64,000 nt of DNA, taken from positions 7,027-71,026 of the forward strand of contig JAFQKJ010000140.1 of assembly GCA_017397005.1 (NCBI GenBank), written 5' to 3'. Position 1 is the first letter of the stretch, and every line of letters begins with the position of its first letter. This document shows positions 6,556 to 39,982 of this stretch, one piece after another. Source of the stretch: Bacillota bacterium. Lineage in GTDB: Bacteria > Bacillota > Clostridia > Peptostreptococcales > Anaerovoracaceae. A model generated the notes under the pieces. The model saw only the letters and a program-made list of their open reading frames with translations, made no database searches and was not told where the DNA came from. Both the position numbers and the translations under genes were made by a program.

Positions 6556-6845
6556 TATGATGTACTCTTACGAAAAAAATCCCCGTCTCTAACTACAAAG
6601 AGACGGGGTAATCCGCGGTACCACTCTTCTTGATGTAAATAATTTACACCCGCTTTATCGATATCCTGTGAATATCTATCTCTGTAACGGGAGAACCCGT
6701 TGAAGCCTACTAAATAACTCTTTCGGTCCAATGGCTCGAAGAGGAGCTGTTTGAATGTCCACACTGTTTTTCACCAACCAACAGCTCTCTGAAGAGGTCT
6801 TGTTCAAACTGATTCTTGTCATCGCCTTAACTTATTAAATTACTT
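6556..6845 (-). promoter_or_regulatory. T-box leader (tRNA-sensing transcription attenuator) of the ilv-leu operon
   Basis: The minus-strand RNA contains a GA/K-turn-like GCGAUGA, an AGAGA box, a GGUGAAA distal-loop motif and an F-box CCGUUA. The T-box core AGAGUGGUACCGCGG lies at ~6611-6627. It is followed by a terminator, CCCCGUCUCU-(8 nt)-AGAGACGGGG (6581-6608), plus a U7 tract. ORF 6555-6764 overlaps this RNA and is rejected as coding. Confidence 0.88.
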
Positions 6846-25834: not shown

Positions 25835-25985
25835 ATAAAAACTCTTCTATCAGAAGAAGAGGCTGCTAACTTTTGTCTTTTTCCTCATCTTCCAGAATAC
25901 TCTGCAGGAATTAGCACCTTAAATCTGATGTTCAGGTTGCCGGGCTTCACAGGGCCTGTCCCTCAGCCTCTCTTGATAAGGTATT
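25835..25985 (-). promoter_or_regulatory. SAM-I (S-box) riboswitch with expression-platform terminator
   Basis: The minus-strand RNA reads CUUAUCAAGAGAGGCUGAGGGACAGGCCCUGUGAAGCCCGGCAACC...AAGGUGCUAAUUCCUGCAG, which matches the S-box consensus. The terminator is CUCUUCUUCUGAUAGAAGAG (about 25842-25862) plus a U tract. ORF 25919-26131 overlaps it and is rejected. Confidence 0.9.
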
Positions 25986-27956: not shown

Positions 27957-29123
27957 ATGACAGAAAAACTTTTTCAGATAGATCCTTATTTAAAACAGAC
28001 AGAAGCCGAGATAGTTGAGGTTTCTGAAGACACTTTGGCCCTTGACAGGACCATCTTTGCTCCGGAAGCCGGAGGTCAGGCCAGCGATCTTGGAACGATA
28101 GACGGAATAGACATGCTCCATGCAGAAGAAAAAGACGGTATCGTGTATCATAAAATGGCAGACATTCCTTCAGGATTTAAAGCCGGCGCGAAAGTAAAAC
28201 TTGAACTGGACTGGGAAACTCGTTTTGACCATATGCAGAATCACTGCGGAGAACATATTATTTCCGGCATTCTGTTCACAAAGTACGGCATAGGAAACAA
28301 AGGCTTCCATTTGGGGAGCGAATTCTCAACTTTGGATGCAGATATGAAACAAATGCCTCAGGAAATGGTGGATGAAGTAGAACGTCTTGCCAACAAAGCC
28401 GTATTTTCAGCCGTTCCTGTCACAGTGGATATGATCGAATCAAAGGAAGAGGCGCAAAAGCTTCCATTAAGAAAAGAGCTCAAAGTCGATGAAGATATTT
28501 CCATAGTTACTATCCCGGGAATAGACTGCGTTGCCTGCTGCTGTCCTCATCCTTCAGATACATCCCAGGTAGGCCTTATTAAAATCATAAAAGCAGAAAA
28601 CTACAAAGGAATGACCCGTATTTATTTCAAATGCGGCATGAGAGCCTTTGAGGACTACAAACTTAAACACGATATCATCACCGTTCTTAATAAGAAATAC
28701 TCTTCGGAAGAGCATAATCTCATAGAAAACATCAAGATCCAGGATAATAAAAACAACGAGATGCGTCGGGATCTTTACGCTATGAAGTCCAAATTCGCTC
28801 TTATGGAAGCAGAACGTCTTGTTGCTGACTCAGAAAAAGTCGTTTCTTTTGAATACGACGATCAAAGTCTGGACGACCTTAAATTTATGGCCAAGAAGAT
28901 AATGGAGATAACAGATCTTCCGGTGATCCTCTCTTCCACCTCCTGCATGACAGTGCTGCTTACTCATTCCGGCAAAAGCAAGCTTAAATGCGGCAAGCTG
29001 GTCAAGGAATTTGCCTGCGGCTTTGGCGGCAAGGGCGGAGGCAGTGATACTCTGGCTCAGGCTCTGTTCAGCGATGTGGAAATAATGAGAAATTTTGTAA
29101 AAATTTCATTGATGTCAGTCTGA
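27957..29123 (+). CDS. AlaX-type alanyl-tRNA editing protein (AlaRS second-additional-domain family)
   Basis: 388-aa ORF with zinc-site motifs HCGEHII (HxxxH) and CCCPH (CxxxH). The N-terminus (DPYLKQTEAEIV) resembles the AlaX N-domain. Confidence 0.75.
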   Translation: MTEKLFQIDPYLKQTEAEIVEVSEDTLALDRTIFAPEAGGQASDLGTIDGIDMLHAEEKDGIVYHKMADIPSGFKAGAKVKLELDWETRFDHMQNHCGEHIISGILFTKYGIGNKGFHLGSEFSTLDADMKQMPQEMVDEVERLANKAVFSAVPVTVDMIESKEEAQKLPLRKELKVDEDISIVTIPGIDCVACCCPHPSDTSQVGLIKIIKAENYKGMTRIYFKCGMRAFEDYKLKHDIITVLNKKYSSEEHNLIENIKIQDNKNNEMRRDLYAMKSKFALMEAERLVADSEKVVSFEYDDQSLDDLKFMAKKIMEITDLPVILSSTSCMTVLLTHSGKSKLKCGKLVKEFACGFGGKGGGSDTLAQALFSDVEIMRNFVKISLMSV

Positions 29124-29137
29124 TCCCCATATATAAT
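29109..29137 (+). promoter_or_regulatory. sigma-A-type promoter candidate for the nitrogenase-like cluster
   Basis: TTGATG (29109-29114), a 17-nt spacer, then a perfect TATAAT (29132-29137). It overlaps the 3' end of the alaX-like gene. Confidence 0.55.
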
Positions 29138-29167
29138 ATAATTAGAAAATCTGATATCGAAATTTTA

Positions 29168-29229
29168 TTGAGATAGAAGATGCGGCAACACGGAATAAAC
29201 CGTATCTTTTTGATGCGGTTTTTTGTTTT
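29168..29229 (+). promoter_or_regulatory. leader 1: conserved box plus antiterminator/terminator switch
   Basis: The box is TTGAGATAGAAGATGCGGCAA (29168-29188). AGAUGCGG (29178-29185) can pair with CCGUAUCU (29200-29207). The alternative is the terminator AAACCGUAUC-UUUUU-GAUGCGGUUU (29197-29221) plus a U-rich tail, which ends 19 nt before the ATG at 29248. Confidence 0.6.
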
Positions 29230-29247
29230 GCATCTACAGGAGGTAAC

Positions 29248-29496
29248 ATGGAAACAAGAGTAGCCATTATAGGCATAATAGTTGAAAATGTGGATGCTGC
29301 AGAAGAGATCAACGAGCATCTCCACAACTACGGAGCTTACATCATCGGCAGGATGGGGATCCCTTACAGAGAAAAAGGTATAAGCATCATCAGTGTAGCT
29401 ATCGACGCACCTCAAGATGTCATCAACACTCTTGCAGGAAAGATAGGAAGGCTTCCGGGAGTAAGTACAAAAACAGTATACTCCACCACTAAATAA
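29248..29496 (+). CDS. TM1266-family small ACT/NikR-C-like protein (annotated elsewhere as a putative iron-only hydrogenase system regulator)
   Basis: 82-aa ORF with a strong Shine-Dalgarno sequence (AGGAGG). The sequence RVAIIGIIVEN...YIIGRMGIPYREKGISIISVAIDAP...LPGVSTKTVY matches my memory of the TM1266 family. It is paralogous to the C-terminus of the ABC ATPase at 30662-31741. Confidence 0.7.
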   Translation: METRVAIIGIIVENVDAAEEINEHLHNYGAYIIGRMGIPYREKGISIISVAIDAPQDVINTLAGKIGRLPGVSTKTVYSTTK

Positions 29497-29544
29497 CCGA
29501 TAAGAAAAAAGAATATCATGCTGCCCTGACATCAAAAACCTTGT

Positions 29545-29625
29545 TTGAGATGAAAGATACGCAAGTCACAAGTGTTTGTATTTTTTGACCTACAGCCGTA
29601 TCTTCAGGATGCGGCTTTTATAATT
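29545..29625 (+). promoter_or_regulatory. leader 2: paralogous box plus antiterminator/terminator switch
   Basis: The box is TTGAGATGAAAGATACGCAA (29545-29564). AGAUACG (29555-29561) can pair with CGUAUCU (29597-29603). The alternative is the terminator GCCGUAUC-UUCAG-GAUGCGGC (29595-29615) plus UUUUAUAAUU, which lies just before the ATG at 29637. Confidence 0.6.
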
Positions 29626-29636
29626 GGAGAAACACT

Positions 29637-30665
29637 ATGAAAGATAATATGGCCGCCTCACGAGGCAAACTTAAAAAAATAGAATTTTTGGTGCTGGTGC
29701 TCTTTCCTATAGTCTGTGTCCTGTTTGCACTGTCTGTAGGAAGATTCTCCGTACCTGTAACAGAAATTTTCCATTCTATACTTAATAAATTTTCATTTGA
29801 TTTTGAACTTTCAGGTCAGACAGAACTTGTCCTGTGGACCATGAGATTCCCCAGGATCCTTATGGCTCTCCTCGTAGGAGCGGGACTTTCTGTTGCAGGC
29901 TGCATTTTCCAAAGCCTGTTTTCAAATCCTCTGGCATCCCCAGACACGCTGGGAGTGGCATCCGGATCAAGCTTCGGCGCCGCACTGGCACTGCTCCTCG
30001 GTGCAAACCTTATACTGGTTCAAGCCTCAGCCTTGATTTTCGGACTCTGCGCCATGGCCCTGACCTGGATCTCAGGAAGCGGGAGAAACAGCAATAAAGT
30101 ATCTATAGTCTTAGCCGGCATCGTTATCGGCTCACTCTTCTCCGCTTTGGTCTCCCTTGTTAAATTTTCCGCAGATACCGAATCAGAGCTTCCTTCCATA
30201 ACCTACTGGCTCATGGGAAGTCTCAGCTCTGCCGGATACAACACCATAGCACTTGGATGCCCTCTCATCATTTTAGGCATACTCATCCTTTTCCTTTTAA
30301 GATGGAGACTTAATTCTCTTCCATTATCTGACGACGAAGCCTCCTCTCTTGGAATAAACGTAAAAGGGCTAAGGATAGTCTGCATCCTCTGTGCTTCAGC
30401 TATAACCGCTGCATCGGTTTCAATGTGCGGACCCGTAGGCTGGATAGGTCTTCTCATCCCTCATATCTGCAGGATGAGATTCGGCAGCAGCCACGTATCG
30501 CTTCTGCCGGCTTCAGTTCTGGCAGGCAGCGGATTTATGGTACTGGTGGACACAGCTGCAAGAAGCATCTCTCCTTCAGAGATACCGGTATCCATTCTTA
30601 CAGCCATCCTTGGCGCACCATTCTTCATAATCCTCATGAAAAAGAGCGGGGGGTGGAATTTATGA
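29637..30665 (+). CDS. FecCD/BtuC-family ABC transporter permease
   Basis: 342-aa polytopic ORF. RFPRILMALLVGAGLSVAGCIFQSLFSNPLASPDTLGV is the typical FecCD signature. Confidence 0.88.
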   Translation: MKDNMAASRGKLKKIEFLVLVLFPIVCVLFALSVGRFSVPVTEIFHSILNKFSFDFELSGQTELVLWTMRFPRILMALLVGAGLSVAGCIFQSLFSNPLASPDTLGVASGSSFGAALALLLGANLILVQASALIFGLCAMALTWISGSGRNSNKVSIVLAGIVIGSLFSALVSLVKFSADTESELPSITYWLMGSLSSAGYNTIALGCPLIILGILILFLLRWRLNSLPLSDDEASSLGINVKGLRIVCILCASAITAASVSMCGPVGWIGLLIPHICRMRFGSSHVSLLPASVLAGSGFMVLVDTAARSISPSEIPVSILTAILGAPFFIILMKKSGGWNL

Positions 30666-31741
30666 TAATAAAAGTTGAAAACGGCTGTTTTACATATAAG
30701 CACGGCAGGCGTCAGGTCCTGGACAATATAAACTTCGAAGCATCTGCCGGAGATGTAGTGGCTATTCTAGGCCCTAACGGTGCAGGAAAGACCACACTTC
30801 TACGCTGCACTATGGGTTTCCTTAAATGGAGCAGCGGAAGAAGCCTCTTAGAAAGCAAAGATTTCAGAAACCTTCCGGGAAAAGAGCTTTGGAAGACCCT
30901 TTCCTACGTTCCTCAAGCCAAACAGGTCTCTTCGGCATATACTGTCAGAGAAATGGTCCTTCTTGGAAGAAGTGTAGAGATAGGTGTTTTTTCTCTCCCT
31001 TCAAAAGAAGATGTCAGAAAAGCCGACGCTGTGATAGAAAAATTAGGGTTGTCCAGGATCGCTGATTCAAAATGTTCCGAGATCAGCGGCGGAGAGCTCC
31101 AAATGGTCCTCATAGCAAGAGCTCTCGTATCAGAACCGAAGGTCCTGATACTGGACGAGCCCGAATCAAATCTCGACTTCAAAAATCAGCTTTTGGTCCT
31201 GGATACCATAACAGAACTTGCGGCGTCGGGCGTGTGCTGTATTTTCAACACACATTATCCTTCCCATGCCCTCAGAAGAGCAAACAAGACATTGATGCTT
31301 TCTCCAGGCGGCAGTCATCTTTTCGGGAATACCAGAGATATCATCACAGAAGAAAATATAGAAAAAGTATTCGGAGTTCATGCTGTTATCGGAGACATTG
31401 AATCAGAAGAAAAGATCTTCCAGGATGTAGTGGCAGTAGGTATAAAAGCAGACTCTGATCAAACTCAGACAAAAGGATCCTCTGGCTCCGCAGTAGCTAC
31501 AGTATCCATCATTGTCTCGGATACGTCCATAGTTACAGATGTGAACAGCATCCTTCATAGATATTCTAAATACATAATCGGCCGAATGGGCATGCCGTAT
31601 AAAAAAGCCGGCTTTAATATGATAAACATTTTCCTGGATGCTCCTGTAACGGAGATCCGGGCACTTACAGACAAGCTCAATCTCCTGCCGGAGATCAGCG
31701 TAAAAACCACTTATGGAAAGGAGCTGAATCAGCATAGATAA
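30662..31741 (+). CDS. ABC transporter ATP-binding protein fused to a C-terminal TM1266/ACT-like domain
   Basis: The true start is the ATG at 30662 (MIIKVENG), in an ATGA overlap with the permease stop. The track ORF from 30425 is an out-of-context extension. It has Walker A GPNGAGKTT, the signature ISGGELQ and Walker B LILDEP. The last ~85 aa (VSIIVSD...YIIGRMGMPYKKAGFNMINIFLDAP...LPEISVKTTY) align with the 82-aa protein. Confidence 0.85.
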   Translation: MIIKVENGCFTYKHGRRQVLDNINFEASAGDVVAILGPNGAGKTTLLRCTMGFLKWSSGRSLLESKDFRNLPGKELWKTLSYVPQAKQVSSAYTVREMVLLGRSVEIGVFSLPSKEDVRKADAVIEKLGLSRIADSKCSEISGGELQMVLIARALVSEPKVLILDEPESNLDFKNQLLVLDTITELAASGVCCIFNTHYPSHALRRANKTLMLSPGGSHLFGNTRDIITEENIEKVFGVHAVIGDIESEEKIFQDVVAVGIKADSDQTQTKGSSGSAVATVSIIVSDTSIVTDVNSILHRYSKYIIGRMGMPYKKAGFNMINIFLDAPVTEIRALTDKLNLLPEISVKTTYGKELNQHR

Positions 31742-31751
31742 GACAAATAAG

Positions 31752-32789
31752 ATTCGAATAGACATTTTAAATGAAACAAAACAGCTATCCTTTGAAGACT
31801 GGAACCATCTCCTGTCCACATGGACAGAACATGACTTTGACTATTCCTGCAGTCTTGCCAGATCGTCAGCGCTAAACACCTTTGGAAACAAAGTATTCTT
31901 CAGAGGGATAATCGAGTTTACTAATATATGCAAAAATGACTGCCTGTACTGCGGTATCAGAAAGTCCAACAATAACGTTGTCCGCTACAGACTTTCAAAA
32001 GAAGAAATAATGATATGCTGTGCCGAAGGGTACGAGCTGGGCTACAGGACCTTTGTTCTACAAGGAGGAGAAGATCCCTATTACAATGACGATGTCATGG
32101 AAGATATCGTTATGGAGATCCGCAGGACCCACCCTGACTGCGCTATCACACTGTCTCTGGGAGAAAGAAGTAAAGACTCTTACCAAAGACTTTATGATGC
32201 AGGAGCTGACAGGTATCTTCTTAGGCACGAAACAGCAGACTCCTGTCACTATTCACAGCTTCATCCTAAGGAAATGTCCCTTGAAACAAGACTTAACTGC
32301 TTAAATGACCTTAAAGAAATCGGCTATCAGACCGGCTGCGGCATGATGGTAGGCTCTCCTTTCCAGACAACGGAGCTTTTAGCAAAAGATATGATGTTTT
32401 TAAGCAAGTTCAAACCCCATATGGTAGGCATGGGCCCGTTTATTCCTCACGGAGCCACTCCTTTCAAGGATCATCCGGCAGGAAGCCCGGAACTCACGCT
32501 CTTCCTTTTGAGCCTTGTGCGCATAATGCTGCCTGACGTGCTTCTGCCTGCCACCACAGCTTTAGGCTCCCTGCAGGATAACGGGCGTTTAAGAGGTCTT
32601 CTTGCGGGCTGCAACGTAATAATGCCAAACCTGTCTCCTATGTCCATCAGAAAAAAATACCTTCTGTATGACAATAAAGCAGGAGTAGATACTGACGCAA
32701 GAGAAAGTCTCAGGATGTTAAAAGAACAGGTCAAAGAAATCGGCTACGAAATGTCCTCTGAAAGAGGCGACTATAAAGAGAGGTATTGA
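31752..32789 (+). CDS. HydE-family radical SAM enzyme (start codon unresolved)
   Basis: The frame is open from 31728. Translation gives ...[13 protein letters not shown]...[22 protein letters not shown] (CX3CX2C), then [34 protein letters not shown]-like [19 protein letters not shown] and CNVIMPN. These follow the T. maritima HydE sequence as I remember it. The first in-frame ATG, at 32010, is downstream of the radical SAM motif. The 5' end at 31752 assumes an ATT start; see findings. Confidence 0.75.
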
Positions 32790-32790
32790 T

Positions 32791-33546
32791 ATGATAAAAA
32801 TAGCTATTTACGGGAAAGGCGGTATAGGCAAGTCCACTACCGTATCAAATCTGTCTGCTGCAATGGCAGACAAAGGTTTTAAAGTTCTTCAAATAGGCTG
32901 CGACCCTAAGGCAGATTCCACCTTCACTCTTCATGGCAAAGAGTCAGTGAAAACAGTACTGGATCTTGTAAAAGAAAGAAAAGACGGTTTTGAACTGGAA
33001 GACATGGTGACCATAGGCTACAAAGGAGTTGTCTGTGTAGAAGCTGGCGGCCCTACTCCTGGAGTAGGCTGTGCCGGCAGAGGTATAATGGCGGCCTTGG
33101 AAAAGCTTGAACAGAAAGGGGCTTATGAAAAATATCAGCCTGATATCGTATTTTACGATGTTCTTGGGGATGTTGTCTGCGGAGGTTTTTCAATGCCTAT
33201 GAGAGGCGGATATGCAGAAAAGGTATTTATCATAACTTCAGGAGAAAACATGGCAAGACATGCAGCTGCTAACATAGCTATGGCCATAGATAACTTCAAA
33301 AACAGAGGGTATGCAGCTTTGGGCGGTCTTATCCTCAACAAAAGAAACGTAAAAAATGAAGAAGAAAAAGTCCAGGAGCTGGCAGAGGATTTCAACACTT
33401 CTATCGTTGGGACCCTTTCAAGAAGTGAAACTGTGCAGGATGCAGAAGAACTGAATAAAACCGTTATAGAAGCCTTCCCTGACAGCCCAATGGCAGAAGA
33501 ATACAGAAAGCTGGCAGACACTATTCTGGGAATTTGTGAGGTGTGA
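32791..33546 (+). CDS. NifH/BchL/CfbC-family ATPase (nitrogenase iron-protein-like)
   Basis: 251-aa ORF with Walker [11 protein letters not shown], switch [10 protein letters not shown], and cluster cysteines in GVGCAGRGI and [14 protein letters not shown]. Confidence 0.9.
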
Positions 33547-33548
33547 TC

Positions 33549-34877
33549 ATGTTAAAAAGATTATTCGATCCTAATGACACCACCGGTGCTGCAGTTAAAA
33601 TCGCAGAAGCAAATTTTCCGGCCCCCTTTGTTTCGGGTCTGGAATACGGTGCTCCTGCAAGAGGCACTTGGAACATAGTTCATACAGGCATGCTGATCCC
33701 AGATGCACACCAGGTATTCGTCTGCGCCTCCAATTGTCTCAGAGGAGTAGTTTTAACAGCAGCAGAAATGAATGCCTCCCATAGATTTTCAACAGTTACC
33801 ATAAAAGAAAATAATGTGCTTGAAGGGGATATGGAAGACCTCATCATAGAAGGAGTAAGCGATATTATAAATAAGCTTGCGAAAAGGCCTCCGGCAGTTC
33901 TGGTTTACACCAGCTGCATACACCACTTTATCGGATGCGATCTTTCTTTATGCTACAAAGAACTGAGAAAAAGATTTCCGGATATAGCTTTTACCGACTG
34001 TTACATGAACCCTATCATGAGAAAAAGCGGTCTGACTCCGGACCAGATAATGAGAAGACAGCTTTACAGTATACTTGAGCCTAAAACTATAAATCCAAAA
34101 AGCATTAACATCATAGGCAACAACTACGCTACTGACGGCGACAGCGACATAGTAAGACTTATCCGAAAAGGCGGATATTCTCTTAAAGAGGTCCCTCTGT
34201 GCAATACATATGAAGAATATCAGCAGATGGCAGAAAGCTTTCTTAACATTTCGTATAATCCTGCGGCTTTAGCAGGAGGAGAATATCTCAAAAATACCCT
34301 TGGCCAGCAGCATATATACCTGCCTCTCTCCTATAACAAAGACGAGATCAGGAACGCCATGAAAAAATTGAGCGAGGTATTGGGCATAGAATACAAAGAA
34401 GATAAAGAAGATGAAAGAAAAGCGGATTATGCTTTGAGCAAAGCTCTGGAAATCATTGGAGATGCTCCAATAACTATAGACTATACTGCCACCACCAGAC
34501 CGCTTAGTCTGGCAAGGCTCCTTATCGAAAAAGGATTCAACGTAGAAAGAGTTTATGCAGACTCCTTCTCAAAGGATGACCATCCGGATTTTCTGTGGCT
34601 TAGAGAAAACAGCCCTGATTTGGATATCTACGCAACAGTGCATGTAAAACTGAGAGTCCTGCCTAGAAACTATGAACAAAAAACTCTGGCCATAGGTCAA
34701 AAAGCAGCATATTTTACCGGTACAGCAAACTTTGTAAACATCGTGGAAGGCGGCGGATACTACGGTTTCAGCGGCATAGAAAAACTGGCAAAACTTATGG
34801 TCGAAGCTTTTATTGAAGAAAAAGATACCCGCTGTTTAATACAGCAAAAAGGATTGGGGTGTGAAAGCTGCATATGA
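33549..34877 (+). CDS. nitrogenase component 1-type oxidoreductase, D/E/N-like subunit
   Basis: About 442 aa. The ATG at 33549 has GAGGTG 6 nt upstream; the track uses the GTG at 33543, which overlaps the nifH-like stop. VYTSCIHHFIGCD resembles the V-STC---IGDD motif of NifD/E. Cys also occurs in FVCASNC. The terminal motif is CX8CX2C. Confidence 0.7.
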   Translation: MLKRLFDPNDTTGAAVKIAEANFPAPFVSGLEYGAPARGTWNIVHTGMLIPDAHQVFVCASNCLRGVVLTAAEMNASHRFSTVTIKENNVLEGDMEDLIIEGVSDIINKLAKRPPAVLVYTSCIHHFIGCDLSLCYKELRKRFPDIAFTDCYMNPIMRKSGLTPDQIMRRQLYSILEPKTINPKSINIIGNNYATDGDSDIVRLIRKGGYSLKEVPLCNTYEEYQQMAESFLNISYNPAALAGGEYLKNTLGQQHIYLPLSYNKDEIRNAMKKLSEVLGIEYKEDKEDERKADYALSKALEIIGDAPITIDYTATTRPLSLARLLIEKGFNVERVYADSFSKDDHPDFLWLRENSPDLDIYATVHVKLRVLPRNYEQKTLAIGQKAAYFTGTANFVNIVEGGGYYGFSGIEKLAKLMVEAFIEEKDTRCLIQQKGLGCESCI

Positions 34878-36031
34878 AACAGACACAGGCATTTTTATCA
34901 ACATACACAGCGGATGTTTCCGGAGTATGCTCGGCCCTCTTTGAACTGGGAGGCATGACAGTCATGCACGACCCTTCCGGTTGTAACTCTACATATAATA
35001 CCCACGATGAACCAAGATGGTATGACACAGACAGCCTTGTATTTATCTCCGCACTGTCTGAGATCGAAGCCATAATGGGAGATGATCAGAAGATCATAGA
35101 CGATATAATAGATGCGGCAAATCAGCTCAAACCGGCGTTCATAGCCATTGCCGGCACACCTATCCCTATGATGATCGGCACAGATTTTGATGCTATTGCT
35201 TTAGAAATAGAGGATGCCACCGGCATACCGACTATGCCATTTCCTACAAATGGTATGCATTCCTACATAAGCGGAGCGGGTATGGCTCTTGCAGGATATG
35301 CAAAACGTATGTTAAAGGACAGCCCGGAAGAAGTCCTGCCAAGGTCAATGAATATACTTGGGGCCACCCCTTTAGATTTTTCAGTAAACGGCTCTGTAGC
35401 TTCCATGAAAGAATTCTTTGAAGAAAATGGCTGGAATGTCCTTAGCACCTGGTCTATGGGCTCTTCCCCTGAAGATCTTGCAAAATCCGGAAAAGCGGAA
35501 GTCAACTTAGTAATATCATCCGTTGGTCTTGAAACCGCTAAATTCCTTAAAAACAAATACGGTACACCTTATGTTACAGGCACGCCCTGCGGGGAAAAAT
35601 TTAATGAGTTTATCCTGAAAGCTTTAGAAAAAGCTGCAGGCTCAAAGGATGAAACAACAGCTTTTCCCGATATCCCTGAGGAGAATAGAAAACTTGTTAT
35701 ATTCGGAGAAAGCATAACCTCCCGCTCCCTTGCATCTGCTCTTTATCTCGAATACGGCATTTGTGCAAGAGTCATCTCACCAATAGAAACTCCGGATGGC
35801 ATCTTGTCAGGCTCTGATGCCTGTCTTTCTGAAGAAGATGACATAACAGAATCTTTAAAAGGCGTTAAAATGGTGATCGGAGATCCAATGTACAAGCCTC
35901 TAATTCCTGAAGGAGTAAAACACATACCTCTTCCTCACGAAGCCTATTCCGGCAGGATATTCAGAAGGGATATACCAAATTTGGTAAAAGATATTACTCA
36001 ATATTTTGAAAGGAGACTTCTCAATGAATAA
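34874..36031 (+). CDS. nitrogenase component 1-type oxidoreductase, K/N/B-like subunit
   Basis: 385-aa ORF in an ATGA overlap with the previous gene. DVSGVCSALFELGGMTVMHDPSGC resembles the NifK/N ACQPLGA...HGSQGC region. IAIAGTPIPMMIGTD resembles the TTC--E-IGDD region but lacks the Cys. Confidence 0.68.
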   Translation: MKQTQAFLSTYTADVSGVCSALFELGGMTVMHDPSGCNSTYNTHDEPRWYDTDSLVFISALSEIEAIMGDDQKIIDDIIDAANQLKPAFIAIAGTPIPMMIGTDFDAIALEIEDATGIPTMPFPTNGMHSYISGAGMALAGYAKRMLKDSPEEVLPRSMNILGATPLDFSVNGSVASMKEFFEENGWNVLSTWSMGSSPEDLAKSGKAEVNLVISSVGLETAKFLKNKYGTPYVTGTPCGEKFNEFILKALEKAAGSKDETTAFPDIPEENRKLVIFGESITSRSLASALYLEYGICARVISPIETPDGILSGSDACLSEEDDITESLKGVKMVIGDPMYKPLIPEGVKHIPLPHEAYSGRIFRRDIPNLVKDITQYFERRLLNE

Positions 36032-37148
36032 GTATTTTAAAAAGCTGGTTTGCTTTATAACGATTCTGGCTATGGTATTCACCCTTGCTGCCTGCGCAGG
36101 AGACGGCGGATCCGCTGAAAACACCGGCGATACAGTAACTGTAACAGACCACGCCGGATATGAAGTGACACTTCCTGTAAATCCTGAACGTATCGTAGTC
36201 TGTGACATAGTACCTCTTCCTTCTGTTCTTTCTGTATTCTTTGACTCGGCAGAAAAAATAGTAGGCATGACCCCGACCAGCATGAGTGCTGCAGAAAACG
36301 GACTTCTCAGTGAACTCTATCCAGAGATCCTGAATGCTGAAACAAGCTTTATCAACGGAACAGACGTAAATGTAGAAGAACTTCTTCTTTTAGACCCTGA
36401 TGTGGTTTTCTACAGTGCAGGAACTGCCGCCCTCGGCGATCTTCTCAGAGAATCCGGATTTAATGCAGTAGGCATTTCAGTTAATAAATGGGATTACGAC
36501 TGCATTGAAACTTTAGAAAACTGGATCTCCCTCATCTCTCAAATATTCCCGGACAACGACAAAACCGATGCTGTTGCCGAATACAGCAATAAGGTTTACG
36601 ATCTGGTTCAAAGCAGAGTAAAGGATATCCCAGAAGATGAAAAAGAAGAGATATTCTTCCTGTTTAAATACGGCGAAACAGATCTTATGACTTCCGGCAC
36701 GAATTTCTTCGGCCAATGGTGGGCTGAATCCATAGGGGCAATAAACGTTGCCGAAGAACTTACTCAGGAAAATCAAGTTTCTATCAATATGGAACAGGTA
36801 TATGCCTGGGATCCCGAAATGATTTTCATATCAAATTTCACATCTGCAATGCCAGAAGACCTTTATAACAACACTGTAGGCAACTATAACTGGAGCGGCA
36901 TCGAAGCCGTAGAAGAAAAAGAGGTATATAAAATGCCTCTGGGAATGTACAGAAGCTATACTCCTGGGGCTGATACCCCTATCACTCTCCTTTGGATGGC
37001 AAAGACTGTTTACCCTGAACTCTTTACAGATATAGATATAATCGAATACACTATCGACTACTACGAAACTGTTTTCGGTGTTACCCTTACAGAAGAACAG
37101 GCTGCATCTATATTCAGCCCGGCAAGAGAAGCTGCTGCAGGATTTTAA
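36024..37148 (+). CDS. BtuF/FecB-type (Peripla_BP_2-like) ABC substrate-binding lipoprotein
   Basis: The ATG at 36024 has AAAGGAGA upstream and overlaps the previous gene by 8 nt. It has a signal peptide with lipobox LAAC, then DPDVVFYS-type cluster-A binding-protein features. Confidence 0.8.
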   Translation: MNKYFKKLVCFITILAMVFTLAACAGDGGSAENTGDTVTVTDHAGYEVTLPVNPERIVVCDIVPLPSVLSVFFDSAEKIVGMTPTSMSAAENGLLSELYPEILNAETSFINGTDVNVEELLLLDPDVVFYSAGTAALGDLLRESGFNAVGISVNKWDYDCIETLENWISLISQIFPDNDKTDAVAEYSNKVYDLVQSRVKDIPEDEKEEIFFLFKYGETDLMTSGTNFFGQWWAESIGAINVAEELTQENQVSINMEQVYAWDPEMIFISNFTSAMPEDLYNNTVGNYNWSGIEAVEEKEVYKMPLGMYRSYTPGADTPITLLWMAKTVYPELFTDIDIIEYTIDYYETVFGVTLTEEQAASIFSPAREAAAGF

Positions 37149-38678: not shown

Positions 38679-38705
38679 AAAGGAGAAGCTTTACACTTCT
38701 CCTTT
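38679..38705 (-). terminator. intrinsic terminator overlapping the stop codon of the homocysteine methyltransferase gene
   Basis: On the minus strand: AAAGGAGAAG-UGUAAAG-CUUCUCCUUU, followed by GCUGAUUUUUC. The TAA stop lies in the loop. Confidence 0.6.
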
Positions 38706-39620
38706 TAATCTTTTTGCTATTTCTTCCATATGCCTGCTGTCCGTTCCGCAGCAGCCTCCGAATATTTTTATATCCATTACGTCCTTCAGTTTTAACATAT
38801 CTTCTGCAAAACTTTCAGGATCGGCAGTCTTAAGTTCTTTCGCATTGTCAAGCTCTTCGTATGATAACAAAGAAGTATTTCCCTGTACTCCTCTGAATCG
38901 TCTCTTAACGATCTCCTTTTGGCTGATATCTTTTTCCAAAGCTTCCATAACATGCCTTGGGTGTATGCAGTTTGTCATATAACATAACGGCGGTTTTTCT
39001 GCATTTTCATCTATGTACTCAATAGCTTCCGCCAGCGGTGTCCCATCTATAAGAGTCCCGCTTTTATCTATAGTAAAACTTATTATGTACGGCAGCCCTG
39101 TATAGGAAACCGCTTTTGCTATCCCTGCCGCTTCAGGCAAAGCCGGGATCAAAGCTGCATATATAAAATCAGCCTGCGCTCTTTTAAAAAGTTCTGCTTC
39201 CCATCTGTGAAAAACTTCAGACTCTGCCTCTGAAAGGCATCCTTTACCGGTATATGCGTCTCCGGCACACCCCATTAAACCTCCTGCATACATTTTTATA
39301 CCAGAAGCTTTCCCTACACTTCTTAGATTTTCCACATTGTCCTTTATTATAGCTTCATCATATCTTCCTTGATACACTCTCGTTTTATTGGATCTTCTCG
39401 TCGGCGTAGTTGCCATAAAAGGCAAAGCATATTTTCTCGCTATATCGATATACTCTTCCCACAGTTCTTTAAGTGCTTTTTTTGAAGCAGGCTGATATAC
39501 CATAGCTCCAAGATCCACATAAGGATCAAGAGTCAGTCCATATTCTCTTTTTAACCGTTCTCCCAAAGCCCCTTCCATAAGGATAGCAGGCTCTTTTTCA
39601 AAACATTCTCTGATATCCAT
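38691..39620 (-). CDS. homocysteine S-methyltransferase family protein
   Basis: The start is MDIRECFEKEPAILMEGALGERL at 39620. The track ORF extends to 39686 and overlaps azlD. The C-terminal GGCCGTDSRH zinc-site motif is typical of Hcy-binding domains. Confidence 0.8.
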   Translation of the reverse strand: MDIRECFEKEPAILMEGALGERLKREYGLTLDPYVDLGAMVYQPASKKALKELWEEYIDIARKYALPFMATTPTRRSNKTRVYQGRYDEAIIKDNVENLRSVGKASGIKMYAGGLMGCAGDAYTGKGCLSEAESEVFHRWEAELFKRAQADFIYAALIPALPEAAGIAKAVSYTGLPYIISFTIDKSGTLIDGTPLAEAIEYIDENAEKPPLCYMTNCIHPRHVMEALEKDISQKEIVKRRFRGVQGNTSLLSYEELDNAKELKTADPESFAEDMLKLKDVMDIKIFGGCCGTDSRHMEEIAKRLKGEV

Positions 39621-39652
39621 TTTGATCTTCCTATTATAATTCCTACTTGTTT

Positions 39653-39982
39653 TTAAAACACAGCTTGGATCAGGATCATATAACAAGCGGTTCCTCCTAT
39701 GATACTTATCAAAGTATTACGCTTCCACAAATGCAGCGCCACTACTGCCGCCACCGCTATCAGCTCCGGCAGGCCATGAGGAGCCGTAAAAACAGACACT
39801 CCTTTAAGGCAGTATACCACCAGCATTGCTATCATAGCCGGCGGAAGCACCTTGCCAAGATAGCTTATCACTGCAGGTGTTTCTTTACCGCCCGGGAAAA
39901 TTATAAAAGGAAGGAATTTTATAGCCATAGTGAGGACACTCATTACAGCGATCAAAATGAGGGAATGCTGTACATCTATCAT
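39653..39982 (-). CDS. azlD: branched-chain amino acid transporter AzlD-family small subunit
   Basis: 109-aa hydrophobic ORF immediately after the azlC-like gene. Confidence 0.75.
   Translation of the reverse strand: MIDVQHSLILIAVMSVLTMAIKFLPFIIFPGGKETPAVISYLGKVLPPAMIAMLVVYCLKGVSVFTAPHGLPELIAVAAVVALHLWKRNTLISIIGGTACYMILIQAVF

Follow-up and report, generated by a model that had tools for sequence, protein, structure and literature searches.

Two leader elements around a TM1266 gene

The subject of this analysis is a 64,000-nucleotide stretch of contig JAFQKJ010000140.1 (hereafter, the window) from a Bacillota bacterium of the family Anaerovoracaceae, in which a small gene of the TM1266 family (29248–29496, + strand) is preceded by one RNA leader element and followed by another. 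An earlier note on this DNA, made from the sequence alone, had described the two leaders as one device used twice, a conserved ~20-nt box combined with mutually exclusive antiterminator and terminator structures. The encoded 82-aa protein, which we propose as the trans-acting factor, matches PF21699 (E = 1.8e-31; 108 bits against a cutoff of 27), TIGR03959 (114 bits against a cutoff of 60.8), and the sequence of PDB entry 2NZC (E = 5e-13); with both curated cutoffs exceeded and the 2NZC fold predicted (see below), the TM1266-like assignment made in that note stands. Leader 2 fills the 140-nt gap ahead of a block of putatively controlled cargo genes on the + strand (29637–37148), which encode a FecCD-type permease (29637–30665), an ATP-binding cassette (ABC) ATPase with a C-terminal TM1266 domain (30662–31741; domain at 31490–31735, E = 1e-20), a HydE-like radical S-adenosylmethionine (SAM) protein (about 31743–32789), a NifH-like protein (32791–33546), two NifD/K/E-like proteins (33543–34877 and 34874–36031), and a Peripla_BP_2 binding protein (36006–37148). 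A promoter-like site is predicted at 29109–29137 (+), with TTGATG at 29109–29114, a 17-nt spacer, and TATAAT at 29132–29137; it agrees with 10 of 12 consensus positions, and the assignment is a consensus match only. Transcription from this site would start near 29144, a few nucleotides 5′ of the RNA element, so that leader 1 would begin very near the transcript's 5′ end.

The sequences quoted in the earlier note are present in both leaders, with box 1, TTGAGATAGAAGATGCGGCAA, at 29168–29188 and box 2, TTGAGATGAAAGATACGCAA, at 29545–29564. The box is conserved, as claimed, but it is not a unit in itself: it is merely the 3′ strand of a hairpin of ~30 nt, and the conserved unit begins with an invariant CUGA located ~20 nt 5′ of the box (29151–29154 and 29526–29529). 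In leader 1 (predicted operator hairpin at 29151–29179, +; covariance model match 29149–29187, 47.7 bits, E = 1.7e-12), CUGA is followed by the 5′ strand of stem P1 (UAUC, 29155–29158), GA (29159–29160), and the 5′ strand of P1b (AA, 29161–29162), and, after a loop (29163–29167), the 3′ half consists of UU (29168–29169), GA (29170–29171), P1′ (GAUA, 29172–29175), and GAAG (29176–29179). The base of this hairpin (P0) is predicted to form by pairing of CU with AG and to be closed by tandem G·A/A·G pairs; the energy is −5.4 kcal/mol with P0 and −0.4 kcal/mol without it. The hairpin of leader 2 (29526–29556, +; match 29524–29564, 46.4 bits, E = 4.7e-12) runs from CUGA through P1 (CAUC, 29530–29533), AA (29534–29535), P1b (AAAC, 29536–29539), and the loop CUU (29540–29542) to GUUU (29543–29546), GA (29547–29548), P1′ (GAUG, 29549–29552), and AAAG (29553–29556). 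Across the 64-kb window, the covariance model gave no credible match other than these two leaders.

Both leaders end in a G+C-rich hairpin followed by a U tract, as expected of intrinsic (Rho-independent) terminators. The terminator of leader 1 (29197–29229, +; −13.1 kcal/mol) pairs 29197–29206 with 29212–29221 and ends in the U tract UUUUUUGUUUU; in the DNA, 29197–29221 reads AAACCGTATC-TTTTT-GATGCGGTTT and is followed by a T tract. That of leader 2 (29595–29625, +; −13.3 kcal/mol) pairs 29595–29603 with 29607–29615, followed by UUUUAUAAUU, and the corresponding DNA (29594–29616) reads AGCCGTATCT-TCA-GGATGCGGCT, then TTTTATAATT. These are the two U-tailed terminators that the earlier note had reported, and they are the only terminator-like sites in 28900–29800, where 0.5 would be expected by chance. 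The alternative pairing between box and terminator arm was likewise recovered. In leader 1, 29175–29185 (AGAAGAUGCGG) is predicted to pair with 29200–29210 (CCGUAUCUUUU) in an 11-bp antiterminator (29175–29210, +; −11.8 kcal/mol versus −13.1 kcal/mol for the terminator), which is the minimum free energy structure once the 3′ arm of the terminator is missing and is incompatible with both P0 of the hairpin and the terminator. In leader 2, the predicted antiterminator (29554–29604, +) pairs 29554–29561 (AAGAUACG) with 29597–29604 (CGUAUCUU) over 8 bp and encloses a nonconserved linker hairpin (29565–29589).

A conserved, covarying hairpin

We collected 80 genome loci encoding TM1266 homologs, compared their upstream regions, and built a covariance model from 21 sequences. 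The 5′ part of the consensus consists of CUGA, a P1 strand of 4 nt (3 nt in a few members), GA, and P1b of 2–4 bp with its loop, sometimes with an inserted hairpin, and the 3′ part of (U)GA, P1′, RAAG, RYRCGG, a variable linker of 9–83 nt, and the terminator. Both strands of the hairpin read UGA-N4-RAA, so that the helix is dyad-symmetric, with two tandem purine–purine (G·A/A·G) loops flanking the covarying 4-bp stem P1 and with pairs in the order U-A, G·A, A·R, four Watson–Crick pairs, R·A, A·G, and A-U. Among 87 distinct sequences, 14 nucleotides are invariant or nearly so.

P1 and P1b both covary: one P1 pair is GC in 44 sequences, AU in 33, UA in 5, and GU in 3, another is CG in 56, UA in 25, and UG in 5, and the P1b position 15–29 shows five pair types. 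Shifting the partner columns lowers pairing from 93% to below 57%. Because the alignments had been selected partly for pairing, two less biased tests were run. In a test anchored on sequence only, the nearest candidates paired at all four P1 positions in 19 of 24 cases and at three in the remaining 5; in a metagenome set (see below), P1 was fully complementary in 84 of 84 distinct sequences, although the search pattern permitted nonpairing at two inner P1 positions (chance of full pairing, 0.56 per sequence). Well over 100 independent loci share this design. The comparison thus shows that the similarity of the two leaders is not due to chance and that the predicted hairpin is conserved and covarying.

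Recurrent weak antisense matches to the covariance models (16–24 bits) in the hydE coding sequence (L024, 4218–4247, −; L017, 4147–4176, −) are probably a coding-sequence coincidence. In some Clostridia leaders (L006, about 2830–2890; L025, about 2820–2885), an extra CUGACCGRAAGC half-element stands upstream of the full element and may be a degenerate tandem copy.

Linkage to TM1266 genes

In the genome set, at least 33 of the 80 loci carry a model match (E < 0.1) beside the TM1266 gene, and about 38 do so if weaker, terminator-backed matches are counted. A scan blind to the protein, in which metagenome contigs were searched with the DNA pattern of the RNA alone, returned 120 matches. A TM1266 gene starts 63–330 nt downstream of 92 of these, whereas 17 have TM1266 immediately upstream and hydE, hydF, a nifH-like gene, or FecCD downstream; three precede hydG, a binding protein gene, or a nifH-like gene with no adjoining TM1266, five are lost at a contig end, and three lie inside genes, apparently by chance. 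Hence, 109 of the 112 evaluable matches (97%) adjoin a TM1266 gene. The earlier description of one device used twice finds its counterpart in these 17 elements that directly follow TM1266 and in a close relative (L003) that has the same two leaders.

The typical operon in the genome set consists of the RNA followed by TM1266, hydE, hydG, and hydF. In a context like that of the window, TM1266 is accompanied by FecCD, an ABC ATPase (TM1266 fusion), HydE-like, and nifH-like genes, and in further contexts by an SsuA/NMT1-like ABC system or by nifHDK-like genes. The cargo therefore varies (hydE/G/F, FecCD ABC importers, TonB receptors, SsuA-like ABC systems, nifH-like genes), with the TM1266 gene as the constant. 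Overall, with the variants described below, the comparison shows a near-obligate linkage of the predicted element to TM1266 genes across at least five phyla.

Mutually exclusive structures across loci

In folds computed without the 3′ arm of the terminator, RAAG and the next 5–8 nt stack on P1 and pair with the 5′ arm in nearly all loci; in folds of the full-length RNA, the terminator is present and the hairpin is closed at its base (P0) by CU/AG and the outer G·A pairs. The variable positions of the box (AUG, ACG, GUA, GCA, and others) shift together with the terminator arm, and a terminator of −8 kcal/mol or below lies within 170 nt in 90 of 105 distinct instances. For the antiterminator, complementarity scored on ungapped 10-mers carried no information, since the scores of permuted controls came close to those of real pairs, and duplex energies with the terminator arm of each instance were used instead. 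By this measure, a box paired with its own arm has a mean energy of −10.0 kcal/mol, compared with −7.4 kcal/mol for permuted partners (Mann–Whitney p = 5e-11). The earlier note had staked its proposal on conservation of the box and the alternative pairing upstream of homologous operons, and this covariation of the box with the terminator arm bears it out. Three mutually exclusive structures, the arrangement by which PyrR-type attenuation is recognized, are predicted for the window and for some 30 further loci.

Variants in distant loci and before hydG

With the Thermotoga maritima TM1266 sequence (PDB 2NZC) as the query to reach distant homologs, we identified a variant, type B, located 79–116 nt upstream of TM1266 in 9 of 11 distant loci (L201–L211), with representatives in Thermotoga, Pseudothermotoga, Marinitoga, Thermosipho, Coprothermobacter, and Bacteroidota. 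It reads CUG(A/U)-N4-RAGG-loop-CU(G/A)A-N4′-RRGG, and the purine-rich box that comes next can pair with the 5′ arm of a terminator; examples with a terminator are L201 (2496–2527), L207 (1401–1432), and L209 (1399–1430). Because the covariance model R2 scored these variants weakly (at most 11.5 bits), type B was established with a separate pattern, in which no pairing was required, and a background control. The pattern matched once per locus, with P1 paired at four of four positions in eight loci and at three of four in one, and gave no further match in these loci and 0 in 2.6 Mb of other loci. A variant in a Cloacimonas locus was recognized by eye. In Bacteroidota, the gene order is feoB, the RNA, TM1266, and a gene for a TonB-dependent receptor, a context that hints at an iron-related signal.

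Another variant lies directly before hydG. Of 42 distinct hydG starts, no fewer than 17 carry it, or as many as about 23 if judged by eye, and it is present even in loci without a leader-type element. It has the form CU(A/G)A-NNGG-RAAG-loop-CUGA-CCNN-RAAG, followed by the Shine–Dalgarno (SD) sequence AAAGGA and, after 7–9 nt, AUG, as in L009 (3318–3362), L017 (4321–4364), L068 (3301–3345), and L004 (3332–3407). P1 covaries here as well (UCGG/CCGA, CGGG/CCCG, CAGG/CCUG, UGGG/CCCA, UUGG/CCAA). The SD sequence is immediately 3′ of RAAG, and no consistent upstream anti-SD pairing was found in these elements. By its placement, the hydG variant is a predicted translational platform for the same operator.

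Comparison with known RNA families

The earlier note had recognized no riboswitch class in the box and suggested an Rfam scan. Searched against Rfam 15 at the gathering score, the whole window contains only a T-box leader (6596–6831, −; 118 bits) and a SAM-I riboswitch (25882–25982, −; 89 bits), both elsewhere in the window; at E values up to 10, 29050–29700 gave only noise of at most 23 bits, far under the cutoffs. The element was likewise unmatched in fifteen other element-bearing loci, so that it corresponds to no known class in the window or in these loci. The PyrR binding-loop consensus has no Rfam PyrR-site match in the window.

Several other identities were considered and set aside. With the kink-turn (box C/D-like) family, the element shares the invariant CUGA, tandem G·A pairs, and a purine-rich three-nucleotide segment, and some members, such as leader 1, fit that motif literally; as a family-wide description, however, it is ruled out, because position 2b holds A in 44 of the 87 sequences but G in 38, and the fold with the best support is one continuous helix carrying two symmetric 2×2 loops. 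A closing helix between CUG and CGG or CAG of the box occurs in some members, such as L003 and L017, and was dropped, being absent in many members (those with GCGCC boxes). Of TRAP or HutP sites, which comprise 6–11 (G/U)AG triplets at a regular spacing of 2–3 nt or 4 nt, respectively, only the UGA/GAG/AAG elements of the hairpin are present, the rest being variable. A DNA operator for a dimeric transcription factor was rejected as well: the conserved flanks are direct repeats and the center is an inverted repeat, so that the DNA-operator reading fails and RNA pairing fits, and the element is always sense-oriented and downstream of promoters.

The TM1266 protein

AlphaFold2 predicts a β-α-β-β-α-β fold for the 82-aa protein (predicted local distance difference test score, pLDDT, of 95.8), and Foldseek ranks 2NZC first (TM-score 0.90), followed by the C-terminal metal-binding/tetramerization domain of NikR (about 0.85) and ACT domains. 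The fold is that of the regulatory and oligomerization domain of NikR alone, so that TM1266 lacks a DNA-binding domain; unlike NikR, it has neither the ribbon-helix-helix domain nor, apart from one conserved His, the His/Cys nickel ligands. For about two decades, the family TIGR03959 has carried the annotation "putative iron-only hydrogenase system regulator," and its crystal structure, 2NZC, is an orphan.

We compared 138 stand-alone with 10 ABC-fused TM1266 domains. N22, L25-H26, Y28, GRMGxPYR, and D53 are common to both groups, which makes the patch they form a probable site of ligand binding or oligomerization. R4 (100%), E13, S49, A54-P55, D57, G64, and G67 characterize the stand-alone proteins only; the basic residues R4, R35, R41, K65, and K75 are kept from Clostridia to Thermotoga. 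The ABC ATPase–TM1266 fusion of the window also occurs in L019, L044, L076, and L078. The C-terminal domains of MetN and ModC are regulatory, and such C-domains of ABC proteins are ligand sensors. By analogy, the TM1266 domain at the end of the ATPase suggests that the same signal also trans-inhibits uptake in a ligand-dependent manner, which would fit a ligand common to the fused and the stand-alone domains.

A proposed attenuation mechanism and its alternatives

Each leader would act as a three-state transcription attenuator composed of the hairpin, the antiterminator, and the U-tailed terminator. Given that the CUGA/RAAG pairing (P0) is weak on its own, free nascent RNA would form the antiterminator cotranscriptionally and be read through, and CUGA/RAAG would have to be stabilized for the terminator to win. 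We propose that TM1266, whose gene separates the two leaders, recognizes the dyad-symmetric hairpin in dimeric or tetrameric form, probably together with a small ligand or metal, and that binding locks RAAG onto CUGA as an anti-antiterminator, allowing the terminator to form. Leader 1 would thereby autoregulate the TM1266 gene, and leader 2 would gate the ABC importer, HydE-like, and nitrogenase-like genes; at the hydG ribosome-binding site (RBS) of other genomes, the bound protein would block translation. We put at roughly 50% the probability that TM1266, probably as a ligand-loaded oligomer, brings about termination by binding the symmetric hairpin and keeping the antiterminator from forming. 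What we infer from the comparisons is which factor binds, that the bound state is OFF, and that there is a co-ligand.

Of the two effectors that the earlier note had considered, the comparative evidence favors TM1266 over a small ligand, by virtue of the 97% adjacency regardless of cargo, the dyad symmetry of the RNA, and the RBS-abutting version without anti-SD pairing. Further features point the same way: the only conserved part of the element is a short symmetric helix, attached to the terminator through a linker that varies between 9 and 83 nt; the element often lies 3′ of the regulator gene, as in the hutP and pyrR operons; and TM1266, which has no DNA-binding domain, is also found fused to an ABC ATPase and has conserved basic residues.

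Several observations weigh against this proposal. Roughly every second TM1266 locus lacks a leader-type element within 3 kb. The most conserved patch of the protein (LH.Y..GRMG.PYR), at the metal-binding region of NikR, may be a site for a ligand rather than for RNA, and the PDB contains no TM1266–RNA complex. The P0 pairs C-G and U-A are invariant and thus unproven by covariation, the sole supporting change being U-A to U·G in type B. In full-length RNA from the window, the terminator conformer is thermodynamically favored even without a factor, so that read-through as the default rests on a kinetic argument. The literature searched, with most subscription journals outside its coverage, contained no published description of such a leader or of a TM1266 mechanism, and nothing relevant on a hydE/hydG riboswitch or RNA motif or on RNA binding by the NikR domain. 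Finally, three metagenome elements have no adjacent TM1266 gene, and the use of both terminator and RBS expression platforms, the copies in tandem or in series, and the spread over at least five phyla are equally typical of riboswitches.

These last points bring up the main alternative, which we regard as somewhat unlikely: a direct riboswitch, in which the hairpin would serve as aptamer and bind a small molecule or a metal ion, such as Fe2+ or an iron-containing cofactor or precursor. The ligand would close CUGA/RAAG and so cause termination, and TM1266 would simply be the gene that usually heads the regulon, perhaps carrying or sensing this ligand as well. The fourteen invariant or nearly invariant nucleotides lie in internal loops, tandem G·A motifs are generally known as metal-binding sites, and the regulon, which combines hydE/G/F biosynthesis with TonB/BtuCD/FecCD-type uptake, has the cofactor-like character of cobalamin regulons. 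However, the conserved part is just a helix of ~30–40 nt with two 2×2 loops, without a junction, pseudoknot, or conserved linker, and it matches no Rfam class; moreover, the SD sequence of the hydG version is not sequestered by pairing, and 97% of the evaluable matches adjoin one small-protein gene regardless of cargo, often with the element placed after that gene rather than at the start of the operon.

That another protein binds the element, such as an L7Ae-family kink-turn binder (YbxF/YlxQ-like) or a factor not encoded nearby, appears improbable. Leader 1 fits a C/D-type kink-turn exactly (CUGA, a 3-nt GAA bulge, and GAUG), and the permissive Rfam scan produced weak snoRNA-like noise nearby; yet position 2b, which must be A in a kink-turn, is frequently G while its partner G5 is invariant, the continuous helix (C-G, U-A, G·A, A·R) accounts for all invariant positions, and a general kink-turn binder leaves the tight linkage to TM1266 unexplained. 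We consider it more improbable still that there is no regulated switch, the terminators being constitutive partial attenuators or ends of upstream transcripts and the two leaders resembling each other through local duplication only. The minimum free energy structures of both full-length leaders, which favor the terminator, would agree with this explanation, but it is at odds with an element that is conserved and covaries across phyla, at more than 100 loci, with the coupled changes in box and terminator arm, with an orientation that is always sense and upstream of genes, and with direct-repeat flanks around an inverted-repeat middle, which make sense only as RNA pairing.

Relation to known attenuation systems

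The earlier note had likened the device to TRAP, PyrR, and HutP, of which the logic of PyrR proves closest and the triplet-repeat likeness to TRAP and HutP does not hold. In the Bacillus subtilis pyr operon, as here, the regulator is the first gene and attenuators are arranged in series, in the 5′ leader and after the regulator gene, and each comprises an anti-antiterminator hairpin (protein-binding in the case of PyrR), an antiterminator, and a terminator, with the bound state leading to termination (as proposed here). Unlike in the pyr system, the RNA is unrelated in sequence and structure and matches no Rfam leader, including the PyrR site, and the candidate regulator has a NikR-C/ACT-like fold rather than that of a phosphoribosyltransferase, its RNA binding being a proposal. 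With HutP and TRAP, the proposed system would share a small oligomeric ligand-sensing protein that steers the choice between terminator and antiterminator, and with the hut operon a regulated terminator after the regulator gene, as in the 17 downstream elements and leader 2 of the window. HutP and TRAP, however, read spaced UAG/GAG triplets on single-stranded RNA, whereas the element is a structured dyad-symmetric helix with two or three triplets, and HutP antiterminates, whereas our model predicts termination.

The ribonucleic antiterminator (RAT) of the LicT/SacY/BglG systems is also a short quasi-symmetric hairpin with two internal loops that overlaps the terminator region, and it is recognized by a symmetric CAT dimer, much as a symmetric oligomer is proposed here; yet RAT is the antiterminator itself, with bound meaning ON, whereas our hairpin opposes the antiterminator, and neither the sequences nor the protein folds are related. 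The cobalamin riboswitch (btuB, btuFCD, cob) offers a parallel in which one cis-acting RNA governs both biosynthesis and TonB/FecCD/BtuCD uptake through terminator or RBS control, but our element has no large complex aptamer, and a dedicated small protein gene travels with it. Three-state attenuation is a known category, the RNA motif is one that is not in Rfam, and an RNA-binding attenuator with a NikR-C/ACT-like fold would be new.

Gene neighborhood in the window

The NifH-like protein falls below the model cutoffs (nifH, 323 versus 394 bits; CfbC, 320 versus 402 bits), and, together with the two NifD/K/E-like proteins (32791–36031 overall), represents an uncharacterized nitrogenase-like system tied to a HydE-like enzyme and an importer. 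In the reading frame of the HydE-like protein (31728–32010), homology to HydE N termini begins at about 31746, although there is no ATG, GTG, or TTG before 32010 and the ATG at 31781 (aaatgaaac) is out of frame; translation would accordingly start at AUC, AUA, or AUU right after the SD sequence GGAAAGGAG, or the sequence contains an error. The SAM-I riboswitch and T-box leader noted above, along with a homocysteine S-methyltransferase-like open reading frame (38691–39686, −), place sulfur/methionine genes around the cluster. An AlaX-like alanyl-tRNA editing gene (27957–29123) directly precedes the TM1266 leader, and this synteny is conserved between the window and L003, L022, and L039.

Implications

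The element would add a widespread cis-regulatory RNA to those cataloged in Rfam, and the analysis offers a concrete RNA-level mechanism for TM1266, in which a protein of 82 aa would act on an RNA of 40 nt. If the protein model is correct, the NikR-C/ACT fold joins the folds of RNA-binding attenuation proteins. More broadly, and tentatively, as we judge the chance to be slightly short of even, TM1266 proteins could be a new class of ligand-sensing RNA-binding regulators, each a NikR-C/ACT-like domain standing on its own, that clamp, as symmetric oligomers, a dyad-symmetric tandem-G·A operator (UGA-N4-RAA on both strands), protein and RNA forming an ancient pair that controls several gene sets by transcription termination or RBS occlusion in Clostridia, Thermotogota, Bacteroidota, Cloacimonadota, and Coprothermobacterota. 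These sets would comprise the [FeFe]-hydrogenase H-cluster maturases (hydE/G/F), TonB/FecCD uptake, and nitrogenase-like clusters.

The same signal appears to control H-cluster maturases, BtuCD/FecCD importers, TonB receptors, and nitrogenase-like/HydE-like clusters, and such a joint regulon, an unexpected one, points to an unrecognized shared metabolite, possibly an iron-containing cofactor precursor that is made or imported. If this holds, a single regulon would join H-cluster biosynthesis with the uptake or salvage of an iron-containing compound. The findings are relevant to hydrogen metabolism in gut and anaerobic-digester Clostridia and to the engineering of [FeFe]-hydrogenase expression.

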